Notes under the pieces: generated by a model
The model's input: the letters and a program-made list of their open reading frames with translations, nothing else
Told to the model about the DNA's origin: nothing
Databases searched by the model: none
Program-made: the position numbers and the translations under genes
In this document: piece by piece, positions 9,681-64,000 of the stretch
How the letters are laid out: each line of letters begins with the position of its first letter
Position numbering within the stretch: the stretch's first letter is position 1
DNA from: Wickerhamiella versatilis
Taxonomy: Eukaryota
Direction of reading: 5' to 3'
NCBI GenBank assembly: GCA_030867685.1
Contig: JAQOWU010000003.1
Span: forward strand, 1,178,001 to 1,242,000
Length of the DNA stretch: 64,000 nt

Positions 9681-10532
9681 TCACAATTTGGCGGTTTCCC
9701 CGGGGCCTTGAACCACGTTAACCATGGCCTTTCCATCGGGACCACGACGAACACCAAGCTCGAGCAGCTTCCCGAACGCCTTTGCGAAATGGTCAAAGAA
9801 AAGATTTTTATCGTTGGCATATGCTTCGACCCACTTTCGGAAGGATGGATCCGACAAAAGAGCCATGTCAGTAGGAAGCATCATAAGCTCCTTATCAGAG
9901 TCATAATACTGAGGCATTCCCGCAGGGGACGTACCCTTATGCCAATCCTCATTGATGAGCAGCTTGAAGAAAGTGTTGGAAAATCTCGTGGGGGTTGGAA
10001 CCCAAGGGCCATCGAATCCACTTCGATTGGCATGCGTTCGTCCTAGATTGTGTGCACCTATGAGAGCCACAATCTCCTGGTCGTTGAATCCCATGCGATA
10101 GAAGATATCCCGAATGTGTGGTGACCCTTTAGCACCGTCCGGTAATCTTCCATTGGGTGGAACATTCTTGTCATCAACGTAGTCGACTCTTCCAGGGCGC
10201 CACTGCACATGGGGACCACCCATAGCTTCCAACGCCACCACACCGGCCAGGGTCCACAGGTCTGCATATGTGATCCATGGGAATTTTGCTTTTATTGGCT
10301 CTAAAAAGGCTCGAGCACACTCGAGCCCAGCATTTGCACCATCCTCGGCCTCTTTGTTGTAGCGCATGGTTGCTCCATTTGAACCCCCGGTCTTTGTTTT
10401 TTTGTCAAACGTTCCCGAGGCATGCCACGAAAGCCGCAGGATCACTGGACCCTTACTTCCATCATCGTACTCCTCATCTGGAAGTATATCACGAATTGCT
10501 TGAGCTACCGCCGCATAATCTCCTTCACTCAT
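9681..10532 (-). CDS. Class I heme peroxidase (cytochrome c peroxidase-like, CCP2 type) with PTS1
   Basis: Distal RLSWHASG, proximal [15 protein letters not shown] and LMMLPTD. No mitochondrial presequence; C-terminal -AKL. Confidence 0.92.
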
Positions 10533-28541: not shown

Positions 28542-28615
28542 GGGCATTTGGTGTAGTTGGTTATCACGTGCGCTTAGCATGCGCGAGGTCCCCGGTTCGA
28601 CTCCGGTAATGTCCA
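28542..28615 (+). tRNA. tRNA-Ala(AGC), copy 1
   Basis: Cloverleaf: acceptor GGGCATT/AATGTCC with G3:U70, anticodon arm TGCGC-TT AGC AT-GCGCG, TTCGA T-loop, followed by a T-run terminator. Confidence 0.95.
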
Positions 28616-28698
28616 CTTTTTGATATTTTTTTACCTCTGTGGTCTAGTGTGAAAAGATTGAGTGTCCACAGCGCGAAAAGCCAAATGACATACTAAGC

Positions 28699-28772
28699 GG
28701 GCATTTGGTGTAGTTGGTTATCACGTGCGCTTAGCATGCGCGAGGTCCCCGGTTCGACTCCGGTAATGTCCA
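28699..28772 (+). tRNA. tRNA-Ala(AGC), copy 2
   Basis: Identical 74-nt sequence to 28542-28615, followed by a T-run. Confidence 0.95.
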
Positions 28773-28948: not shown

Positions 28949-30151
28949 TTAGAATGTGATAACTGAGCGAATCGCTTTGCCTTGGTCCAACAAATCGAAA
29001 CCTTCATTGATGTCCTCAAAAGCAATAACAGAGGACATGAGCTTATCAACCGGAAGCCTACCTTGTTGGAAGAGAGAAATATAACGCGGGACATCACGCG
29101 ATGGGACGCAAGAACCCATATAACTTCCTGCTATAACGGTTTCGCCACCTACAAGTTTCGATACATCAACAGGCAAGTAAGATCCAGCAGGAGGGAGTCC
29201 AGCAGTCACCGTCTTACCACCTCTTTTCGTTAGAGAGACGGCAGACTCAAGCGCTTTGATGACCCCAGCAGTTTCAATAACCACGTTGAAATGGCCGGCA
29301 TATTTTGATGCCTCGTTGGCAGGCACTGCGTCTGTTGCACCGACCTCTTTTGCCAGATCAAGCTTTGATTGTAGCATATCTATGGCCACCACTTCGGCAG
29401 CTCCTGCGGCCTTAGCTCCCATCACAGCACTAAGACCAACACCACCAAGACCGACCACGGCGACAGCATCACCAGGGCGGACCCGAGCCGTATTAATGGC
29501 AGCCCCAACACCTGTCATCACTGCACATCCAAACAATGCAGCATGGCGGAAGTCGAGGTCTGGATCAATCTTGACGACCGAATCAGTGGACACAACCGCA
29601 TGATCCGCAAAACCCGATACACCCAAATGATGATTGACCTCATGTCCACTTGAATCAGTAAGATGTCTATCACCATTCATGAGAACACCGAGTGTGTTTG
29701 CTTTGAGCCCTGGCTCGCATAGTGCCCCACGTCCGTCCTGGCAAGGATCACAATGGCCACAGCTAGGGGTGAAACTCATGACAACATGATCACCGACACT
29801 GAGACCAGATACGCCCGGACCGAGACTTACAACCTCACCTGCAGCCTCATGGCCCATTGCGAGAGGTACGGGTCGCTTCCGCGATCCATTAATGGCAGAT
29901 AGATCTGAATGACAGAGCCCGGCGGCTCGAATACGAACAAGAATTTCAGCATTGCCCGGTGGTGAAAGCTTTAGGGTCTCGATAGAAAGCGGCTTGGAGG
30001 CAGCGTACGGTTTGGCCATACCCATCGTTCGAAGAACTGCTGCTCGAATCTGCATTGTGGAGAATGTCTTAGTAAGAAAGTGATGCGAATGGGGTAGACA
30101 TATCGCGTTTACCCGTATATGACTGGGGGGGGGTCTAAAAAAGGCAGCCAT
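28949..30151 (-). CDS. Zn-dependent alcohol dehydrogenase (MDR), bacterial-type, with possible N-terminal targeting extension
   Basis: GLCHSD, GHE, CGHCDPC..G...LC, FGCAVMTG, GLGGVG and AID (NAD). The catalytic domain begins at ATG 30055 (MQIRAAVL); an upstream in-frame ATG at 30151 adds 32 aa. Confidence 0.9.
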   Translation of the reverse strand: MAAFFRPPPSHIRVNAICLPHSHHFLTKTFSTMQIRAAVLRTMGMAKPYAASKPLSIETLKLSPPGNAEILVRIRAAGLCHSDLSAINGSRKRPVPLAMGHEAAGEVVSLGPGVSGLSVGDHVVMSFTPSCGHCDPCQDGRGALCEPGLKANTLGVLMNGDRHLTDSSGHEVNHHLGVSGFADHAVVSTDSVVKIDPDLDFRHAALFGCAVMTGVGAAINTARVRPGDAVAVVGLGGVGLSAVMGAKAAGAAEVVAIDMLQSKLDLAKEVGATDAVPANEASKYAGHFNVVIETAGVIKALESAVSLTKRGGKTVTAGLPPAGSYLPVDVSKLVGGETVIAGSYMGSCVPSRDVPRYISLFQQGRLPVDKLMSSVIAFEDINEGFDLLDQGKAIRSVITF

Positions 30152-30413: not shown

Positions 30414-31604
<1,191 letters not shown>

Positions 31605-36767: not shown

Positions 36768-36839
36768 TAGCATCGCCTCGTTTCGATCGAGGGACCTCAG
36801 GGTTATGAGCCCCGCGCGCTTCCGCTGCGCCACGATGCT
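36768..36839 (-). tRNA. Initiator tRNA-Met(CAT)
   Basis: Reverse complement AGCATCG...CGGGG-CT CAT AA-CCCTG...GATCGAAAC...CGATGCTA. A1:U72, three G:C anticodon-stem pairs and the GATC T-loop are eukaryotic initiator hallmarks. Confidence 0.96.
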
Positions 36840-37131: not shown

Positions 37132-40005
37132 CTAATCAGGAACCTCTTTAGCATTCTTGTCAGCGTCAAGTAATCCCGAAACTACCACGTTTCTGTTGGT
37201 CATAAGATTAGCAAGTTCCAAGGATTTGAGCCAATGAACCTTGGCAGATCTTCTCAAGTGCACCTCAGTTTCGTTTTCCCAGAGGAACTGCACTGGTGTG
37301 AACACAACGTGCGAACCCACCATGCCAATCACGACGGCGGCTCCCTTCGAAGCTTCACGATCCTTATAATTGACATCTTGATGATCTTCAATGAATTGCA
37401 CACAACGAATTGCTAGACGGGTTGCACGAACGTGATCAAGTGGCGAGGGAAGACCACCCTGTTGCAAGTGGCCAGGAATTGCCTCACGAGCATCGAAGTG
37501 ACCGTGCGATTCAGTTTCAAAAATACGGGTTAGATTCTCTGTGGTGAACCCTGGGGCAGAGCATTCGTTCCTAATTACCAAACGACCAGCCCGCTCACGG
37601 CCGTTGTCTGCCTTAAAGCACTCACGTAGATGCTTGATATCCGCCGACATTTGTGTAAGGCTAATTCCCTCTTCTGGCACATAGCAAGCATATGCACCAG
37701 TAACCAGAGCACAGAGGGCTGCCACGTAGCCAGACTCACCACCCTGGACCTCAACAACGAACACACGACGGCGAGTAGATGAGGCACTAAGCTTCACAAT
37801 ATCACAGTAGTCCACCAGAGCATTCAAACAGGTATCAGTACCAAGTGAAGTCTCAGTTCCTGGAACGTTGTTAGACACGGTTGCTGGCAGACACGTCATG
37901 GGAATCCGGAATGCTGGATATGTTGGTCGCATTGCATCAAGCATTTGTAGCGAATGGTAGGCTTCAAAGCCACCAATTATAATAAGACCTTGAATGTTAT
38001 ATTTTGTCAGGTAGAATGCAATCATACCATAATCGCAGTCTGGCAGTTGCCTATTCGTGCCGATTTCGCAACCACCTCTTGCATAAATTTCGTTGATCTC
38101 ATGCCAGGAAATGGGCGAGATGGATTCATGTCGAGACAGACCTGTCCAACTATTAGCGATGGTAAATGGCTTATGGCCACGTGCAAGACAGTAAGACGCA
38201 GCAGCTGCCACGGCAGCATTCATACCACCGGCCGGAGCACCGACTGCTACAATGGCGACGTTAATAGGTTCATTTGACGGGATCTTTAGATCTGATCGGT
38301 CAGAAGTAGAAATCGCCAAGTAGTTGCGTAGATGCTCCTTGAACTCTGAATCCCGCAGAGCCCGGGCGCTGTCGAAGTCTTTCCTAGCAATCGCTTCAGC
38401 AACCTTCTTGGTTTCAGCAACAGCTTCCATAAGGTTCGTGCGAATGATTTTGTTCTCTCTGATTCCAATCATTGGACTAGGGGTGTCGGGAGTCGAATCC
38501 AGAATAGCATCCACGGCCTCAGCACCCTGCATTGTGGCCAATATACGGTCAAAAGCGACAGCGGTACCACCACGCTGAGTGTGACCGAATGTTGTAACTC
38601 TGGTATCGAGACCAATCTCACTCAAAGCATCCTTAACCTGCTCAGACTTAATAGGGTTCAGGTCGGTGTCTATGGCACCCTCAGCGACAATAACAATAGT
38701 ACTTCGAGAGCCACCCTTATTACGATGGCGCATCACCACCTTACACATCTTATCTATCCATTGCCCGGCTTGTGGGGGCATTTCAGGAATGAAGACATAG
38801 TCGGCACGAGTAGCCAACGCAGCCATAAGTGCCAACCAACCACAATGACGTCCCATGACCTCGATAACGAATGCACGGGAGTGAGACTCAGCAGTGGCTT
38901 GAATCCAATTCACGCAGGTGCAGATACGATCAAGTGACGATGAAGCTCCGATAGTATGGTCTGTCATTGCCATATCGTTGTCAATGGAGCCAACAAGACC
39001 AGAGATGTATAGGTGACGATGACGTTCATATTGCTCTTCAGTGATCTTCCCAGTATCCCTGAGTTCTTTTATAAGACTCGGCCAGTTCGATCGGAAAAGA
39101 TCGGCACCGGTGAGCGAGCCGTCACCACCACAAACAACGATCGCATCAATACCGGCCTTCACCATGTTGTGACAAGCCTGAAGGCGTCCAGAACGCTCTT
39201 TGAAAGCCATACACCTTGCTGTCCCAATAACAGTACCACCAATACTTAGGAAACCACGAACGTCGTCCCATGAAACTTTCTTCATGAGCCTATCACCCTC
39301 GACCAGACCTTCATAACCTTCATAAACGGCCCACATTTCGCAACCACGGATGATACCATTACGAACAACTGCACGTACTGCAGCATTCATACCAGGCGCG
39401 TCACCACCACTTGTCAACACTGCTATTTTCTTAAGCGGGGGCACTCGCTCTTTGGGACCACTGCCAGGAATATCCCTAGTTTCTTCTGGAATTTGTGAAT
39501 CCTTGAGATGGGGCACAAGTTTCGGCCTCGGAACTGTCGTTGAAACCATGCGCTGGCTGCTGAATCCAAGCAGGTTTCCGATGGGGTCGACAACAAACAT
39601 TTCTAGTGGGTCTCCAAATATAGGATAGCACTGCTTGAGTCCATCATATGCCGGGAGCTTTGGCACTGGGAATATGGCTGCCGTAGCAACTCCTCGCCAG
39701 TCAACCTTTTTATGGTTCTCCACATAATTGTTGACTTGCTCTAATGACACGTCTGCCGCAACACCAATCGGGGAGAGGCGCAGGTAGACAACGTTTAGGT
39801 CACTACCATTGCCGGTCAATATCAATGTATTCTCCCGTTCGCAATCAGGCGAATGATGAACACTCTGTCCACCCTGAATAGCTGAGGTCTTGGCATCCCA
39901 TTCTGCATTTAAAATGAACCCAAGGGATATGTAGAAACTATTCGCTTTCTCAAAGAGAGCAGAACTACGTGTGACCACCGAATATACAGTCGTACCTGAC
40001 GACAT
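37132..40005 (-). CDS. PFK2: 6-phosphofructokinase beta subunit
   Basis: LTSGGDAPGMN, GGDGSLTGA, GSIDND, EVMGRHCG. The second half has the beta-type GAPAGG..RHES signature. Yeast Pfk N-terminal domain present; ATG at 40005. Confidence 0.9.
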   Translation of the reverse strand: MSSGTTVYSVVTRSSALFEKANSFYISLGFILNAEWDAKTSAIQGGQSVHHSPDCERENTLILTGNGSDLNVVYLRLSPIGVAADVSLEQVNNYVENHKKVDWRGVATAAIFPVPKLPAYDGLKQCYPIFGDPLEMFVVDPIGNLLGFSSQRMVSTTVPRPKLVPHLKDSQIPEETRDIPGSGPKERVPPLKKIAVLTSGGDAPGMNAAVRAVVRNGIIRGCEMWAVYEGYEGLVEGDRLMKKVSWDDVRGFLSIGGTVIGTARCMAFKERSGRLQACHNMVKAGIDAIVVCGGDGSLTGADLFRSNWPSLIKELRDTGKITEEQYERHRHLYISGLVGSIDNDMAMTDHTIGASSSLDRICTCVNWIQATAESHSRAFVIEVMGRHCGWLALMAALATRADYVFIPEMPPQAGQWIDKMCKVVMRHRNKGGSRSTIVIVAEGAIDTDLNPIKSEQVKDALSEIGLDTRVTTFGHTQRGGTAVAFDRILATMQGAEAVDAILDSTPDTPSPMIGIRENKIIRTNLMEAVAETKKVAEAIARKDFDSARALRDSEFKEHLRNYLAISTSDRSDLKIPSNEPINVAIVAVGAPAGGMNAAVAAAASYCLARGHKPFTIANSWTGLSRHESISPISWHEINEIYARGGCEIGTNRQLPDCDYGMIAFYLTKYNIQGLIIIGGFEAYHSLQMLDAMRPTYPAFRIPMTCLPATVSNNVPGTETSLGTDTCLNALVDYCDIVKLSASSTRRRVFVVEVQGGESGYVAALCALVTGAYACYVPEEGISLTQMSADIKHLRECFKADNGRERAGRLVIRNECSAPGFTTENLTRIFETESHGHFDAREAIPGHLQQGGLPSPLDHVRATRLAIRCVQFIEDHQDVNYKDREASKGAAVVIGMVGSHVVFTPVQFLWENETEVHLRRSAKVHWLKSLELANLMTNRNVVVSGLLDADKNAKEVPD

Positions 40006-41063
40006 GTCGAACCACACAAGTTACCAATTTTTTTTTAAGGCTTTGCTCAGTCTCGGGGCTCTATCTATATGACGTGAATTTGGGAGAAACCTACCTAACC
40101 CTAACGATGGTTGCGATTCATACGATAGCAACGTATGCCTAAATCAATGCCCAGAAATAATTAATACAGACTTCGTAGGAAGATTCACTGGGGCAAGAAT
40201 ACAAACCTAGCATATGGGGAGGAGAAATACTTGACAGCTCGTTTCGGTCGCACATAACAGGTTAGGGTTTGCTTTTTTCGACTGGCTCGGGGATATGCAG
40301 CGCCTTATAAGCCTCGCTTCCCTCAGCAGAGAGCTCTTTTGGCCATATTGTGCTTGGAGAAAGTTTTGTTGGCTTATTATGCATCTACATATTTGGACAT
40401 GGAAACGAAGGCCAGGTGCGTAAGCGAACCCGAGCCCTAGGAATTATCAGTGTGATTCGCGATATGGCACGAGTATTTCGGTCTTTTTCGACTCTACAAC
40501 TTCTAGATGAGTGACTGCAGCAGCTATAATACGGTGCACCATGAGATCAAGAAATCGCAGCACTAATACATAGTGTGCTATTATGGTGCCTTAGGTTAAG
40601 ACCCTAACCCTGATGCCTTTAAGCGAGCTAGCTGCCGGTAGTAAACAGCCGGAGAAAGCGCGAGGATAGCGTTGTTTTATCAGATCCTAAACAATATTTT
40701 ATGTTCCAGCACATTTTATAGAGAGATTATATTTGCTTCACATCTATTTTTCTTGTTGATGAAAAAAATTACTGGTCACCTCTGTATACCAACGATAGCT
40801 TGCTGAGTAGAGGGAGAGAGAGATCAAACTGATTAATCAGTAAAGTGATGCTTTCTACTAGCCCGAGACCATATGTAACAACGTGTGAGGGCTAGGAAGT
40901 TTATCAGCTAGTTTTCAAGCACTGATGTTGATGTTAAGCAGAAAAGATAGATATTATGTCTTTACTATGACACAATGGGGTTTTCATATTATTCCGTTAT
41001 TAGCCAAATCATGTGTCACCAGCTGCAAATCGTAAAATACAATATTTCGAGAGCAAGAGTCAC

Positions 41064-42065
41064 ATGCTTATTCAAAGGTTGCTGATTGGGCGAGCAATCC
41101 GAGGGATGGCAACTTCACAACCTGTCAAAAAGATGAAAACCACATGTCCATTTGCTAATCCACAGGACATTACGGGAGAACTTACTCCATCAGCTATCTT
41201 CATAACTGCACTGATCAAGTCGAACCCAGAAAAAGTGAGGGATTTAATTGGCGAAGTTCCGTCACTTGCCAATAGCATAGGCTTCCGGGCTCCCGCCAGT
41301 AATTTGAGCTGTGTTACTGGTATTGGTGTGGATGGGTGGAAGCAAATGTTCCCCGAAGCGAAGGTACCAAAGTATTTGCATCCTTTCGAAGAACTGAAGG
41401 GGAAGTATACAGCCCCGTCTACCCCTGGTGACCTGCTATTTCACATCCGAGGAACAAGAATGGATACCTGTTTCGAGCTGGCCCGTGTAATTCTGGACAA
41501 GCTTAGTGGTAATGTGGAAGTTGTCGATGAAACTCATGGTTTCGGGTATTTCGATCAAAGAGATCTGCTGGGATTCGTTGATGGCACCGAAAATCCAAAA
41601 GGAGACGATGCTGTGGAAGCAACTGTTTCCAATGCTAGTGACGACTCGGATTATGTAGGTGGATCATACGTGATAACCCAGAAATATCTTCACGACTTGA
41701 AAAAGTGGAATCAGGTCCCTGTAGAGGAACAGGAAAAAATTATTGGGCGTGAAAAGTTGAGTGATATTGAACTCGATGATGAGAAAAAGTATCCCTTTGC
41801 CCATAATGTCTTGACCAACCTGGATAGTGGCGAAGAAATTTTGAGAGACAATATGCCGTTTGGAAATGCTGGCAAAGGTGAATATGGCACTTACTTCATT
41901 GGATATGCCAAGACCCCTCTGCCTACCGAAGAAATGATGCGCAACATGTTTTTGGGAAATCCGGAAGGCAATTATGACCGCGTCTTGGATTATTCTGAGG
42001 CAATCACTGGAAATCTCTTCTTTGTGCCTTCCGCTGATTTCATAGGGTCGCTTAGCGATGATTGA
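41064..42065 (+). CDS. Dye-decolorizing peroxidase, bacterial class B (DypB-like), with putative mitochondrial presequence
   Basis: PSTPGDLLFHIR, RDLLGFVDGTEN (GXXDG), GGSYV..QKY.HD, proximal His AHN, distal Arg ILRDNMPFG, GTYFIGY and FFVPS. ATG at 41064. Confidence 0.93.
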   Translation: MLIQRLLIGRAIRGMATSQPVKKMKTTCPFANPQDITGELTPSAIFITALIKSNPEKVRDLIGEVPSLANSIGFRAPASNLSCVTGIGVDGWKQMFPEAKVPKYLHPFEELKGKYTAPSTPGDLLFHIRGTRMDTCFELARVILDKLSGNVEVVDETHGFGYFDQRDLLGFVDGTENPKGDDAVEATVSNASDDSDYVGGSYVITQKYLHDLKKWNQVPVEEQEKIIGREKLSDIELDDEKKYPFAHNVLTNLDSGEEILRDNMPFGNAGKGEYGTYFIGYAKTPLPTEEMMRNMFLGNPEGNYDRVLDYSEAITGNLFFVPSADFIGSLSDD

Positions 42066-42091
42066 GCTTCATTGTTACATATTATATTAAA

Positions 42092-43486
42092 TTACAGAAG
42101 TCTAGCTAGCATTGCATTCCCTCCCACGATAGCACCGTCCAGCTGCCTGGATGCAGCATCAGCATCTAGTGGTGAGGAAAATTGAATATATGCCCGTGAT
42201 TTTCCCTTTACTTCATCAATGTCTACTATCTGCTCGGCAAATTTGGCCAGTAGGTCTCTTACGCACTCCAGCGAAGGTGCATTGTCAACAAGCACCGACT
42301 GCGATAACTTAAGAAGTGAGCCTGATATCGTTTCAAACGTCGTTTGGGGTGCCTGATGGTTGGAAATAGCTACACTTTCGTCTTTCCATATGGGAAATGG
42401 TTGGTCTTTTTGGTAATGCTGGTGGGCTGTAGGTGGTGTCTCCTCATCATATGGGGTCTCCATGGGCGTCTCTAGTGGTGTTTCGAGCGGTGTTTCTGCA
42501 GCTGAACCAATATTAAATTTAGAGGAAGTGGTTAGCTCTTCCGAATTAAATGCAGAGAATGAACCACGATACATTCGTTGAATAGCGCCTATGCTAGAAA
42601 TCTCGCAGGTGTAGAATTCAAGCTTAAGCCCCATCGTACCTTCCACCAAGCCCCACTTGCATAGATTTTGAACAGTAGATTTAGCTTCAAACTGAGCCAA
42701 ACCCTGTTTCAGACCCCGCTCATCGCAATCGTTGTATACGAGAACTGCAGATACGCATAACCTCAAATTCGAAAGAAATGCAAAGAGGTCTCGGGCGTTC
42801 CAGTTCATGGGAACCGCATCTACACGTGTAACATAGCCTGACTTTGAAGAATCTTTTATACGTATAAGCCCGTCCTTGTCGTATACTAGCTCTTCTTGGT
42901 TTGAATCAAGCGGGGAAGTGAATGGGATACCTGGATCAATCAGATGTGGGGGCGTAACTTTCGGACTCTCCGTATAGGGACTTATGGGAGTAACGTACTG
43001 TCGTAGAGGATTAGCTGGACTTGGAGAATTGCTATGTTCCACAGCTGTATACATGGGAGGTTCATTATCCAACGATACTGGGCTGGGAGATGGGGATTGT
43101 GCCGATCGCTTGCGATTTGCTCGTCTGTTCTGGTTCTTCCTATCTCTTGCTTTGATTTCCAGAACCCTACCAGCAATGGAAATTGGAATATTTGAATCCA
43201 GGACATTTTGGGCGGCTTCATGATTAGTGAAACACACGAAGCCATACGTGTACTCCATTGCCTGACCAGGACGTGCAGAATTCACAAACACAGCCTCAAT
43301 CTCGCCGAATCTAGCGAAAGCATCACGAATTTGTGCTTCGCTGGCAGTGTAGGAGAGGTTTCCGATGTAAACCGAACGCTCGTTGGCGAAACCTTGTTTC
43401 TTCATGGCATTCGCTGTTTCTGAGACTGGCTTGGTCATGCGCTGGTGAGCCCATCCACCGAGCCTATGGTTCCGCCAAAATGGCAT
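42092..43486 (-). CDS. Multi-RRM RNA-binding protein
   Basis: RNP2 VYIGNL and RNP1 YGFVCF, a further RRM-like unit, and a C-terminal RRM (RAYIQF). Start uncertain (ATG 43486 or 43438). Confidence 0.75.
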   Translation of the reverse strand: MPFWRNHRLGGWAHQRMTKPVSETANAMKKQGFANERSVYIGNLSYTASEAQIRDAFARFGEIEAVFVNSARPGQAMEYTYGFVCFTNHEAAQNVLDSNIPISIAGRVLEIKARDRKNQNRRANRKRSAQSPSPSPVSLDNEPPMYTAVEHSNSPSPANPLRQYVTPISPYTESPKVTPPHLIDPGIPFTSPLDSNQEELVYDKDGLIRIKDSSKSGYVTRVDAVPMNWNARDLFAFLSNLRLCVSAVLVYNDCDERGLKQGLAQFEAKSTVQNLCKWGLVEGTMGLKLEFYTCEISSIGAIQRMYRGSFSAFNSEELTTSSKFNIGSAAETPLETPLETPMETPYDEETPPTAHQHYQKDQPFPIWKDESVAISNHQAPQTTFETISGSLLKLSQSVLVDNAPSLECVRDLLAKFAEQIVDIDEVKGKSRAYIQFSSPLDADAASRQLDGAIVGGNAMLARLL

Positions 43487-63020: not shown

Positions 63021-64000
63021 TTAATTCACTTCTTCTGATGACACTAGTGACCAGCTGGCGCTCTCCTCGTCACCATCAGTTAATACCACCACATCAAATG
63101 GCGCTATACTAACCTCTGTAGTATCCTTGCCATCCCCAAGCACGTTACGCAATGCTCTGGGTAGTGTTACCTTTCTTAATTCGTAGGTATGGCTAATCAG
63201 AATAAACACCTCATGGTGAGAATTCCTGCGAGAGCATACCTCGATGTCGTCAGGAACGCCTGGAATGTAAGGCCTGATACCAGCCTCGCCCAGCCATAAG
63301 TACACAAGATTGCTTAGCAAGTCATCATCCAGCCATGCTCCAACATAAGTGATCCGTCCATTTCCAACTTTTCTTGTCAAGACTGCAGGCTGGTCATCCA
63401 ACCATCCATTTGATTTGCCATAACGCAAGAGTGTCTCAGTATCCGGGGCTGATGCTCTCAGAAGTTCTGCCCAGACATTGGCAGTGCCAATCCCAGCAAT
63501 CCCTTCAAGAGGCACGTCCGTATCCAAGGCATAAAACTGTTCCACCCTAGCACCAAGCAAGTCAATCAGTGGACCAGGCTGTCGCGCAGGCTGTAATCCG
63601 TTATATTCATTTTTCATGCCACTTCGTGGACCCAGAACTAAGTGTCCACCGCTTTTGATATATTTCTCTAGATGCTCGGGTATTCCTCGAGCAAATACGT
63701 TAAGAGCTGGAGCAACAACAATTTTGTATTTTGAAAGATCTGCGGAAGGAGATACCATGTCGACGCTCTGTGATTGAGCTCTTAATGGATTATAGAAGGC
63801 CTTGAGCTCCTCAATGGGATCAAAATTTTCTGAGTGTTTCTGGAAAGTAATTGCCCATCGACTATCATAGTCATGTATCACGGCTACTTTACCTTGTGGA
63901 CTTGTATTGTCCAATGCCCAGCTGGCCTTACCAAACTCAGCACCCAATTGCTTGATTTCATAGAAACCCGGAACTGGTGTTCCATCAGCACCCAATAGAG
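63021..64000 (-). CDS. GH42 beta-galactosidase, C-terminal part (5'-partial), bacterial-like
   Basis: VAV.HDYDSRWA, DLS.YK.VVAPAL, GGHLVLGPRSG.K, PGPL..LLG..VE and G.PA......G.G...YVG (trimerisation domain). The frame is open to the window edge. Confidence 0.88.
   Translation of the reverse strand, partial: LLGADGTPVPGFYEIKQLGAEFGKASWALDNTSPQGKVAVIHDYDSRWAITFQKHSENFDPIEELKAFYNPLRAQSQSVDMVSPSADLSKYKIVVAPALNVFARGIPEHLEKYIKSGGHLVLGPRSGMKNEYNGLQPARQPGPLIDLLGARVEQFYALDTDVPLEGIAGIGTANVWAELLRASAPDTETLLRYGKSNGWLDDQPAVLTRKVGNGRITYVGAWLDDDLLSNLVYLWLGEAGIRPYIPGVPDDIEVCSRRNSHHEVFILISHTYELRKVTLPRALRNVLGDGKDTTEVSIAPFDVVVLTDGDEESASWSLVSSEEVN

Follow-up and report, generated by a model that had tools for sequence, protein, structure and literature searches.

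We describe a gene for a DyP-type peroxidase in a 64,000-nucleotide stretch of the Wickerhamiella versatilis genome (assembly GCA_030867685.1, contig JAQOWU010000003.1, positions 1,178,001 to 1,242,000 of the forward strand). The whole stretch is referred to as the window, and all positions are counted from its first letter. The gene, at 41064-42065, is predicted to encode a working class-B/P DyP which descends from the cargo of a Family-1 encapsulin, has long been resident in the yeast, carries neither a targeting tail nor, within the window, a shell gene, and has gained an N-terminal extension resembling a mitochondrial presequence. The probability of this reading as a whole was put at roughly 0.5. 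The coordinates of the features are collected in Table 1.

The yeast DyP was translated without interruption as 333 residues followed by a stop (41064-42065, plus strand). The protein begins MLIQRLLIGRAIRG-MATSQ and finishes ...FFVPSADFIGSLSDD*, and it contains the motifs GFVDGTEN (residues 170-177), AHN (246-248) and ILRDNMPFG (259-267). In Pfam, Dyp_perox_C and Dyp_perox_N were matched with E-values of 5.1e-55 and 6.6e-27, and PF04261 and PF20628 scored 94.7 and 186.2 bits against curated cut-offs of about 20. The model TIGR01413 gave 256.7 bits (cut-off 100.5), and the Tat-dependent EfeB model TIGR01412 gave 55.7 bits, far under its cut-off of 428. The top match in PDB was 8u4z, a "Family 1 encapsulin-associated DyP peroxidase" (E 9.1e-110), with query residues 28-330 aligned to residues 3-311 of a 370-residue chain. 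Since Pfam, TIGR01413 and PDB 8u4z were all matched in this way, the identity of the protein as a DyP is far beyond chance. The best PDB matches were cargo DyPs and DypB, which are class B structures, and a compact core within the range of about 300-320 aa, together with the lack of a Tat signal, agrees with this class. One of them, Rhodococcus jostii DypB (PDB 3qnr/3qns, E 6.1e-96), which we take to be an encapsulin cargo, is a class B enzyme with a C-terminal extension of its own (353 aa) and ranked below the proteobacterial and enterobacterial cargo DyPs. No class D structure was found among the 60 PDB matches listed, and the leader of the yeast protein has no hydrophobic core. The class D DyPs of fungi, which are secreted or intracellular, belong to the same superfamily, but the window protein is of the B/P kind.

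Asp173, His247, Arg261 and Asn263 were invariant across an alignment of 30 sequences (alignment A1). His247 and Arg261 aligned with His225 and Arg242 of the Klebsiella pneumoniae enzyme KpDyP, which are described as its proximal histidine and distal arginine (PMC10960027). An AlphaFold2 model built from the 30-sequence alignment had a mean predicted local distance difference score (pLDDT) of 87.4 and a predicted TM-score of 0.85; residues 4-28 were modelled with pLDDT below 50 and the last helix was formed by residues 324-330. As far as sequence can tell, the window gene is one for a class-B/P, encapsulin-cargo-type DyP peroxidase with all catalytic residues kept. A preliminary description, made from the letters of the window, had proposed an intact DyP with the motifs quoted above, and this was confirmed by translation, Pfam, TIGR01413 and the PDB match. 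Its further claim of a likeness to bacterial class-B, encapsulin-cargo enzymes is backed by PDB and by the cluster search, the shell-gene neighbours and the tree described below.

Relatives were searched for among 5.8 billion protein clusters, the best 120 matches were listed and the 118 closest non-yeast hits were analysed. Above 60% identity only two clusters were found, that of the yeast DyP itself and a second yeast-like one, P0003, while the rest of the best 120 lay at 54-60%. All named matches among these 120 were bacterial, mostly Acetobacteraceae, with Rhizobium, Dyella, Sphingomonas and others. The identities between yeast and bacterial proteins ranged from 54.9 to 60.9%. The bacterial relatives run on beyond the core through a linker of 25-40 residues to a terminus of the type ...GSLGIGSLKEE, and the targeting-peptide pattern was detected within the last 40 residues in 84 of the 118 closest hits, with six further variants recognized by eye. 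The GSLxIGSLK motif has been described in no DyPs other than encapsulin-associated ones, the shell is contacted through its Leu, Ile, Leu and Lys, and deletion of targeting peptides abolishes shell loading (PMC10960027).

The neighbourhood of the bacterial genes was analysed at 18 loci, all from Proteobacteria other than Acetobacteraceae. A Linocin_M18 encapsulin gene was located directly downstream in 14 of 14 loci whose DyP was 49-61% identical to the yeast protein, and in none of four loci whose DyP was 34-36% identical. The question raised earlier, whether the closest bacterial homologues lie beside encapsulin genes, was thereby answered positively for the former class. Twelve of the 14 encapsulin-locus DyPs were translated; ten end in GSLGIGSL, one stopped at 28 residues and one ran on past 500 residues. 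At two loci from alphaproteobacterial metagenome-assembled genomes the two genes shared a frame: one open reading frame (ORF) matched Dyp_perox_C and then Linocin_M18 (L013:4785-5750), and a 965-aa ORF spanned both the DyP and the encapsulin gene (L009:2978-5875). These could be cargo-shell fusions or assembly frameshifts.

The yeast protein ends where the DyP core does and therefore has neither the linker nor the GSLxIGSLK peptide. P0003 ends SADFIATLSDD, likewise at the last core helix. KpDyP (PDB 8u4z) has a core of equal length with its proximal His, distal Arg and GXXDG Asp aligned to those of the yeast enzyme, but it runs 59 residues further, through a linker to GSLNIGSLK, and its shell is encoded next door (PMC10960027). 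The yeast DyP in turn has about 26 extra N-terminal residues and no shell gene in the window. The cargo DyPs of Acetobacteraceae and other Proteobacteria (Gluconobacter, Acetobacter, Komagataeibacter) have the blocks GFVDGTENP, YAHNVLTN and ILRDNMPFG in common with it; they differ in having a linker followed by SLGIGSLKEE, no leader, and genes of about 65% GC. A search of the 64-kb window by tblastn with five encapsulins, on both strands, found no encapsulin (best E 0.58), and no relic of a tail or shell gene was recognized in the three forward frames of 150 bases across and after the DyP stop codon. We also considered whether the C-terminal IGSL of the yeast protein was a retained targeting peptide from which the linker had been deleted. 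This is unlikely, as ADFIGSL aligned with, and was modelled as, the last core helix. Because the yeast IGSL occupies the place of the bacterial FLDAA/FLASV and is without the first Leu and the Lys of GSLxIGSLK, it was read as core and not as a remnant. The absence of an encapsulin tail, as first proposed, is borne out by the C-terminal comparison and by the 30-sequence alignment.

At the other end of the protein, the translation confirmed a leader with three arginines, no acidic residue and an arginine shortly before the second methionine, which was also conserved in P0003. Most bacterial proteins in alignment A1 start within about 12 residues before the position of Gln34, so that the yeast DyP is some 23-26 residues longer, and Met24 may correspond to the ancestral start. 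The first 20 residues of the yeast DyP have a net charge of +3 and no acidic residue. They were compared with the first 20 residues of the ORFs in the window (40 ORFs in all) by a crude presequence test, consisting of charge counts and the helical hydrophobic moment. The moment of the DyP leader, 0.68, was the highest of the 40, and only two ORFs combined at least three basic residues, no acidic residue and a moment of at least 0.5, namely the DyP and an Oma1-type M48 protease. Proteins of the Oma1 family are mitochondrial inner-membrane proteins. The motif of the processing peptidase places an Arg at -2 or -3 of the cleavage site, and both Arg13-Gly14/Met15 in the window DyP and Arg13-Asn14/Met15 in P0003 fit the R-2 rule.

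The leader was also compared between and within species. Upstream of Met1, the window DyP and P0003 had no identity in 16 in-frame positions, and within the leader they had 5 of 14; the P0003 leader nevertheless keeps the start Met, the length, three basic and no acidic residues, and Arg13, and the MATSQ that follows from Met15 is identical. In the five members of the gene's own cluster the leader was invariant, while two of 17 upstream codons varied. A second allele carried Q19R and D35N, by which the N-terminus becomes more basic and the acid-free stretch longer. This conservation is the best evidence, at the level of sequence, that the leader is translated.

We infer from these features that the yeast DyP may be imported into mitochondria. 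In the proposed course of events, the eukaryotic gene would have kept the whole catalytic core without the C-terminal linker and peptide, and would have gained a basic, acid-free and disordered N-terminal extension. Initiation at ATG 41064 would give a precursor whose extension serves as a mitochondrial matrix presequence, and the processing peptidase would cut near Arg13-Gly14/Met15. The peroxidase would then act on H2O2 inside mitochondria, possibly with porphyrinogens as reductant. Initiation at Met15 or Met24 would yield a cytosolic protein almost identical in mature sequence. If the cut fell before Met15, the imported form would equal the Met15-started form, which would be a neat route to dual localization.

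Several observations weigh against mitochondrial import and would be better explained if the enzyme were simply cytosolic, with the 14-codon leader untranslated or neutral and the start at Met15 or Met24. The first ATG (41064) has C at -3, whereas Met24 has A and lies close to the start point of the bacterial proteins. An out-of-frame ATG at 41011 opens an upstream ORF of 24 codons which ends at 41085, 21 bases before Met15, and which would overlap the first DyP ATG if transcripts begin further upstream. A leader of 14 residues is short for a presequence. In the ascomycete family described below, 74 of 121 gene models have an extension of at most 15 aa. According to a published account, class B DyPs reside in the cytoplasm and are synthesized with no N-terminal extension, as was also reported for Dictyostelium DyPA (PMC8230527), a eukaryotic class B enzyme that is much more distant from the yeast protein (PDB 7o9j, E 2.6e-39). 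On the other side, an untranslated or neutral leader would not be expected to persist in frame, at constant length and with the start Met, the charge pattern and Arg13 retained, in an orthologue without a single upstream identity, nor to stay constant in five cluster members while upstream codons vary; moreover, residues 15-34 are themselves basic and acid-free. A purely cytosolic enzyme seems rather unlikely. Two further upstream ATGs were noted at 40967 and 40975, which may bear on the choice of start codon. Peroxisomal targeting was rejected, as the protein ends SDD and no pattern resembling a type 2 peroxisomal targeting signal was seen by eye.

The origin of the gene was evaluated against other fungal DyPs. 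A search among representatives at the 50%-identity level placed the yeast protein together with bacterial clusters and yielded outgroups only. In the ESM Atlas the cluster nearest to the yeast DyP was 53% eukaryotic, mostly Ascomycota. One 50%-identity representative was a Trichoderma protein, and a search with it returned a large fungal family with identities to the query from 64% upward. The named matches in this family were all fungi, including Trichoderma, Aspergillus, Penicillium, Hypoxylon, Exophiala, Pseudogymnoascus and one Lipomyces (Lipomyces orientalis). These proteins have a core of about 315 aa without a tail and typically end ...SLDSD, with L-x-x-[D/E] at the end in 82 of 122. 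In 121 of the 122 the start of the core could be located, and the N-terminal extension was at most 15 aa in 74, 16-39 aa in six and at least 40 aa in 41. The 41 long extensions are basic and mostly 75-100 aa in length (range 40-128), and 32 of them passed a crude presequence rule (at least three basic and at most one acidic residue in the first 30). The mixture of long and short extensions suggests alternative starts, or a systematic mis-annotation of first exons across many fungal genomes.

Our literature searches found no study of this ascomycete B-like DyP family. The main survey of fungal DyPs covers class D genes, none of which were found in Saccharomycotina (Adamo et al. 2022, PMC9064869). 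The earlier statement that fungal DyPs are normally secreted class D enzymes is therefore incomplete, since a large tail-less B-like family exists in ascomycetes and many of its models carry presequence-like extensions. The ascomycete family resembles the yeast DyP in being eukaryotic and tail-less, in its acidic end at the same alignment column and in its often long, basic N-terminal extension. It differs in that identity to the yeast protein is about 47%, its blocks GTANP, HKTLT and GRTKxDNxEL are different, and it forms a clade of its own.

The yeast proteins had a mean identity of 58.1% to the bacterial ones and of 46.8% to the fungal family, whose mean identity to the bacteria was 50.5%. 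Where the consensus residues of bacteria and the fungal family differed, the yeast pair (the window DyP and P0003, also used as such in all trees) followed the bacteria in 24 columns and the fungal family in two. When shared residues were polarised by the outgroup the count was 2 versus 1, and they were set aside as uninformative. The N-terminal CP[FI] was likewise rejected as a derived character shared with enterobacterial DyPs, being too scattered (present in 2 of the 118 bacterial proteins and in 2 of the 122 from the fungal family).

In a quick tree of 129 rows the yeast pair had a long stem (1.33) and was separated from all 118 bacterial hits (support 96), and in one of 106 rows it fell on the bacterial side (86). 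However, a 106-row tree constrained to join yeast and fungal family was better by 34.9 log-likelihood units than the free search, so the quick search was regarded as unreliable. For the smaller sets the longest outgroup branches, near-duplicates and loci L003, L009, L012 and L013 were left out. In the LG+F+G4 tree of 48 rows and 312 columns, yeast and bacteria were separated from the rest with support 77.3/96, and the bacteria without yeast with 93.9/95. By the approximately unbiased (AU) test on this set, joining yeast with the fungal family gave a delta of 12.1 (p 0.247) and joining yeast with Acetobacteraceae a delta of 9.3 (p 0.385). When the same three trees were evaluated under LG+C20+F+G4, that with yeast and Acetobacteraceae was best and the free LG tree followed at a delta of 3.9; the tree with yeast and the fungal family had a delta of 14.8, a p-AU of 0.171 and a weight of 0.09 by resampling of estimated log-likelihoods. 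In a careful maximum-likelihood tree with posterior mean site frequencies (73 rows, 351 columns), the yeast pair grouped with 40 proteobacterial cargo DyPs (96/88) and the fungal family was monophyletic without it (100/100). The sampled bacterial clade excluded the yeast pair (90/90), whose stem was 1.08 long, and the AU test on this tree placed the alternative with yeast and fungal family 16.55 units lower (p 0.092). The Lipomyces sequence nested among Pezizomycotina.

These trees must be weighed against an explanation without a separate transfer, by which the yeast gene would be a fast-evolving member of the old tail-less ascomycete family. A single ancient acquisition would have been passed on by vertical descent, and most budding yeasts would have lost the gene. 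The loss of the tail and the N-terminal targeting extension would then date from that older acquisition. Several results count against a separate bacterial origin and agree with vertical descent. None of the three AU tests rejected the sister relation of yeast and fungal family, the constrained tree beat the quick free tree, and the sampled bacteria form a clade without the long-stemmed yeast pair. Moreover, the yeast protein and the large fungal family, which includes the Lipomyces protein, share their terminal alignment column and resemble each other at the end (SLSDD versus SLDSD), and this shared end point favours a common origin. The long, presequence-like extensions of many family members and the largely ascomycete composition of the nearest ESM Atlas cluster point the same way. 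The opposite is indicated by the higher identity of the yeast protein to bacteria, by the 24 consensus columns against two (polarised, 2 versus 1), by the position of the yeast pair outside the fully supported fungal family and with the proteobacterial DyPs, and by the low weight of the yeast-fungal tree under C20. In addition, the fungal family departs from the species tree at Lipomyces, and yeast-like clusters above 60% identity number only two among the 5.8 billion. Vertical descent appears rather doubtful, and on the sequence comparisons a common origin with the fungal family is disfavoured. We read the yeast gene as standing outside the Pezizomycotina-type family, and it most likely has a separate proteobacterial origin, for which Acetobacteraceae are a reasonable candidate donor group. 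Between such a separate transfer and shared ancestry with the other ascomycete B-like DyPs, the trees lean towards the former without proving it. Of the horizontal origin first proposed, the placement outside the fungal family and with proteobacterial cargo DyPs stood, but a fungal-sister relation was not rejected.

It had further been proposed that the yeast protein exchanged encapsulin loading for mitochondrial import. The tail is indeed absent, but the exchange itself is an inference, and 28 of the 118 closest hits are also without a recognizable peptide. The donor could have been a free, tail-less bacterial DyP which never had a targeting peptide, in which case nothing was exchanged. The 28 hits include several full-length proteins of Dyella, Luteibacter and Variovorax, a point against the loss of a tail in yeast, and the branch of the yeast pair lies outside the sampled cargo DyPs altogether. 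Against such a donor, 90 of the 118 carry the peptide and several of the 28 are partial records (two are labelled so); the shell gene was present in every locus of the same identity class; and the best of the three C20 topologies joins the yeast pair to Acetobacteraceae, all of which are peptide-bearing in A1. The more distant actinobacterial relatives P0141 and P0143 also carry a GSLxIGSLK-type peptide, and the peptide is therefore probably ancestral to the whole cargo-type group. For the same reason we read both fungal lineages as sitting within the cargo-type DyPs. A tail-less donor is unlikely. Two tail-less proteins from contigs of about 18-21 kb, P0008 and P0033, with longish end branches, nested in the Acetobacteraceae clade (95/94 as a pair); P0008 begins MASKCPCSHAMS.... 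They might represent bacterial genes without a tail, or else additional eukaryotic acquisitions.

Taken over both lineages, ascomycetes may have taken up cargo-type DyPs at least twice, once in a Pezizomycotina-type ancestor and once in this yeast lineage. Each would have dropped the shell peptide at the edge of the core and added a mitochondrial presequence, and alternative starts would supply a cytosolic pool. This wider picture is put forward tentatively.

The gene has the appearance of a long-resident yeast gene. The window is a compact piece of yeast chromosome, in which the DyP gene lies between a 957-aa phosphofructokinase (PFK) gene and a convergent gene for an RRM protein. Its neighbours are eukaryotic, and they further include genes for a Vps34-type PI3-kinase, a proteasome ATPase, a Zn2Cys6 factor, Sec66 and Erv1. 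Its GC content is 0.450 and that at third codon positions (GC3) 0.434, compared with window means of 0.470 and 0.420, and its codon-usage score was the fourth best among 39 window ORFs. The DyP genes of bacterial relatives have a GC content of 0.625-0.663 and a mean GC3 of 0.80. In the region between PFK and DyP, bacterial promoter-like sites numbered 5 against 5.1 in shuffled sequences, and terminator-like sites 1 against 1.5. The DyP cluster (five members) and the neighbouring PFK share the same longest contig of 1,348,231 bp. For the 75%-identical DyP orthologue P0003 the source is a single contig of 18,185 bp, as it is for an 87%-identical PFK, P0291, so the adjacency of PFK and DyP is very likely conserved in a second species. 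Among named species the PFK itself was nearest to Wickerhamiella sorbophila at 58% identity, before Sugiyamaella, Trichomonascus and Blastobotrys at 54-55%, with seven clusters at 60-63% scoring above the W. sorbophila protein. Judged by this one protein, the yeast would belong near the Wickerhamiella/Starmerella-Trichomonascaceae group. Bacterial contamination of the assembly, or a decaying pseudogene, has the bacterial affinity of the protein as its sole support and is extremely improbable given an intact ORF with every catalytic residue, host-like composition and codon usage, a position among yeast genes on a 1.35-Mb contig, and an orthologue beside the same neighbour in a second species; contamination, ruled out by neighbours, composition and synteny, and recent arrival are both excluded.

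Table 1. Features of the DyP gene and its surroundings, in window positions
Feature	Position	Strand	Remarks
Complete DyP peroxidase coding sequence	41064..42065	+	333 codons and TGA stop; no intron needed
Leader, codons 1-14 (MLIQRLLIGRAIRG)	41064..41105	+	Arg5, Arg10, Arg13; no Asp or Glu; Arg13 lies two positions ahead of Met15
Acid-free N-terminal extension, residues 1-34	41064..41165	+	six basic residues; first acidic residue Asp35; bacterial relatives without residues 1-23
Second in-frame ATG, Met15	41106..41108	+	G at -3; following MATSQ identical in P0003
Third in-frame ATG, Met24	41133..41135	+	A at -3; near bacterial start (MKTTCPF versus PDB chain start ..CPISQ)
Dyp_perox_N domain	41163..41543	+	residues 34-160, Pfam match
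Dyp_perox_C domain	41553..42038	+	residues 164-325; distal Asp173 (41580-41582), proximal His247 (41802-41804), distal Arg261 (41844-41846), Asn263
C-terminal end SADFIGSLSDD and stop	42030..42065	+	last core helix 324-330 plus three residues; no linker, no GSLxIGSLK
PFK gene	37132-40005	-	957 aa
Intergenic region PFK-DyP	40006..41063	.	1058 bp; presumed site of both promoters
Spacer, DyP stop to RRM stop	42066..42091	.	26 bp; no relic of tail or encapsulin gene
RRM-protein gene, convergent with DyP	42092-43486	-	stop codon 26 bp from DyP stop

Some other features of the window were recorded. In the intergenic region between PFK and DyP, four of the five two-unit 12-mers of the CCCTAA/TTAGGG type found in the whole window (at most two mismatches) were clustered within 40094-40896, at 40094-40105 (exact), 40261-40272, 40603-40614 and 40885-40896. 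The total for the window was not above chance (5 versus 3.56) and the clustering is striking; it could represent Tbf1-type promoter sites or an interstitial telomere relic beside a foreign gene. A class I heme peroxidase of 283 aa (PF00141, cytochrome-c/ascorbate-peroxidase type) is encoded at 9681-10532 on the minus strand, with an acidic N-terminus (MSEGDY...) and without a leader. Judged by its N-terminus, this classical peroxidase of the window looks cytosolic, whereas the bacterial-type DyP has the presequence-like leader.

Two zinc alcohol dehydrogenases were located at 30450-31604 (plus strand) and 28949-30151 (minus strand), one SFA1-like and the other with a 66-residue N-terminal extension; ADH1, ADH6 and SFA1 appear as xenologues of bacterial origin in a 2018 table for the clade of Wickerhamiella and Starmerella (W/S) yeasts (PMC5897096). 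At the end of the window, an ORF at 63021-63758 on the minus strand, open to 63998, had the GH42 beta-galactosidase trimerisation domain as its sole match. This enzyme family is mainly bacterial, and the ORF may be another acquired gene cut by the window end. Two tandem tRNA-Ala(AGC) genes, 82 bp apart, were found at 28542-28616 and 28699-28772, and a tRNA-Met(CAT) gene at 36768-36839.

The W/S clade of yeasts is famous for horizontally acquired genes. For C. magnoliae, W. domercqiae and C. versatilis, a Dyp-type peroxidase orthogroup of bacterial origin (IPR006314, K07223) was already on record as a horizontal acquisition, and its presumed donors are Actinobacteria (Goncalves et al. 2018, eLife, Figure 2-source data 4; PMC5897096). 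That orthogroup may be the one to which the window gene belongs. The table is silent on encapsulins, tails and targeting, and in eight supplementary files of that paper no mention of encapsulins, linocin or mitochondria was found. A bacterial Dyp-type peroxidase in W/S-clade yeasts is therefore not new in itself, although the link to encapsulins and mitochondria was not drawn in those files. Our literature searches found no mitochondrial DyP, no eukaryotic encapsulin-type DyP and, beyond the 2018 supplementary table, no Starmerella/Wickerhamiella DyP. Horizontal transfer as such is nothing new for these yeasts, and the change of compartment is the unusual part.

If the proposed reading is true, a bacterial protein-shell compartment would have been replaced by a eukaryotic organelle, and the yeast DyP would bear on the question of how an organelle address is acquired by a bacterial gene after its transfer. 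A further outcome is the recognition of a large ascomycete family of B-like DyPs, many members of which have presequence-like extensions. The physiological substrates of DyPs, and the reason why bacteria enclose them in a shell, are questions which the yeast enzyme could address. As a eukaryotic DyP without a shell, and seemingly mitochondrial, it would provide a genetically tractable test of the role of the free enzyme and of the purpose of the shell.

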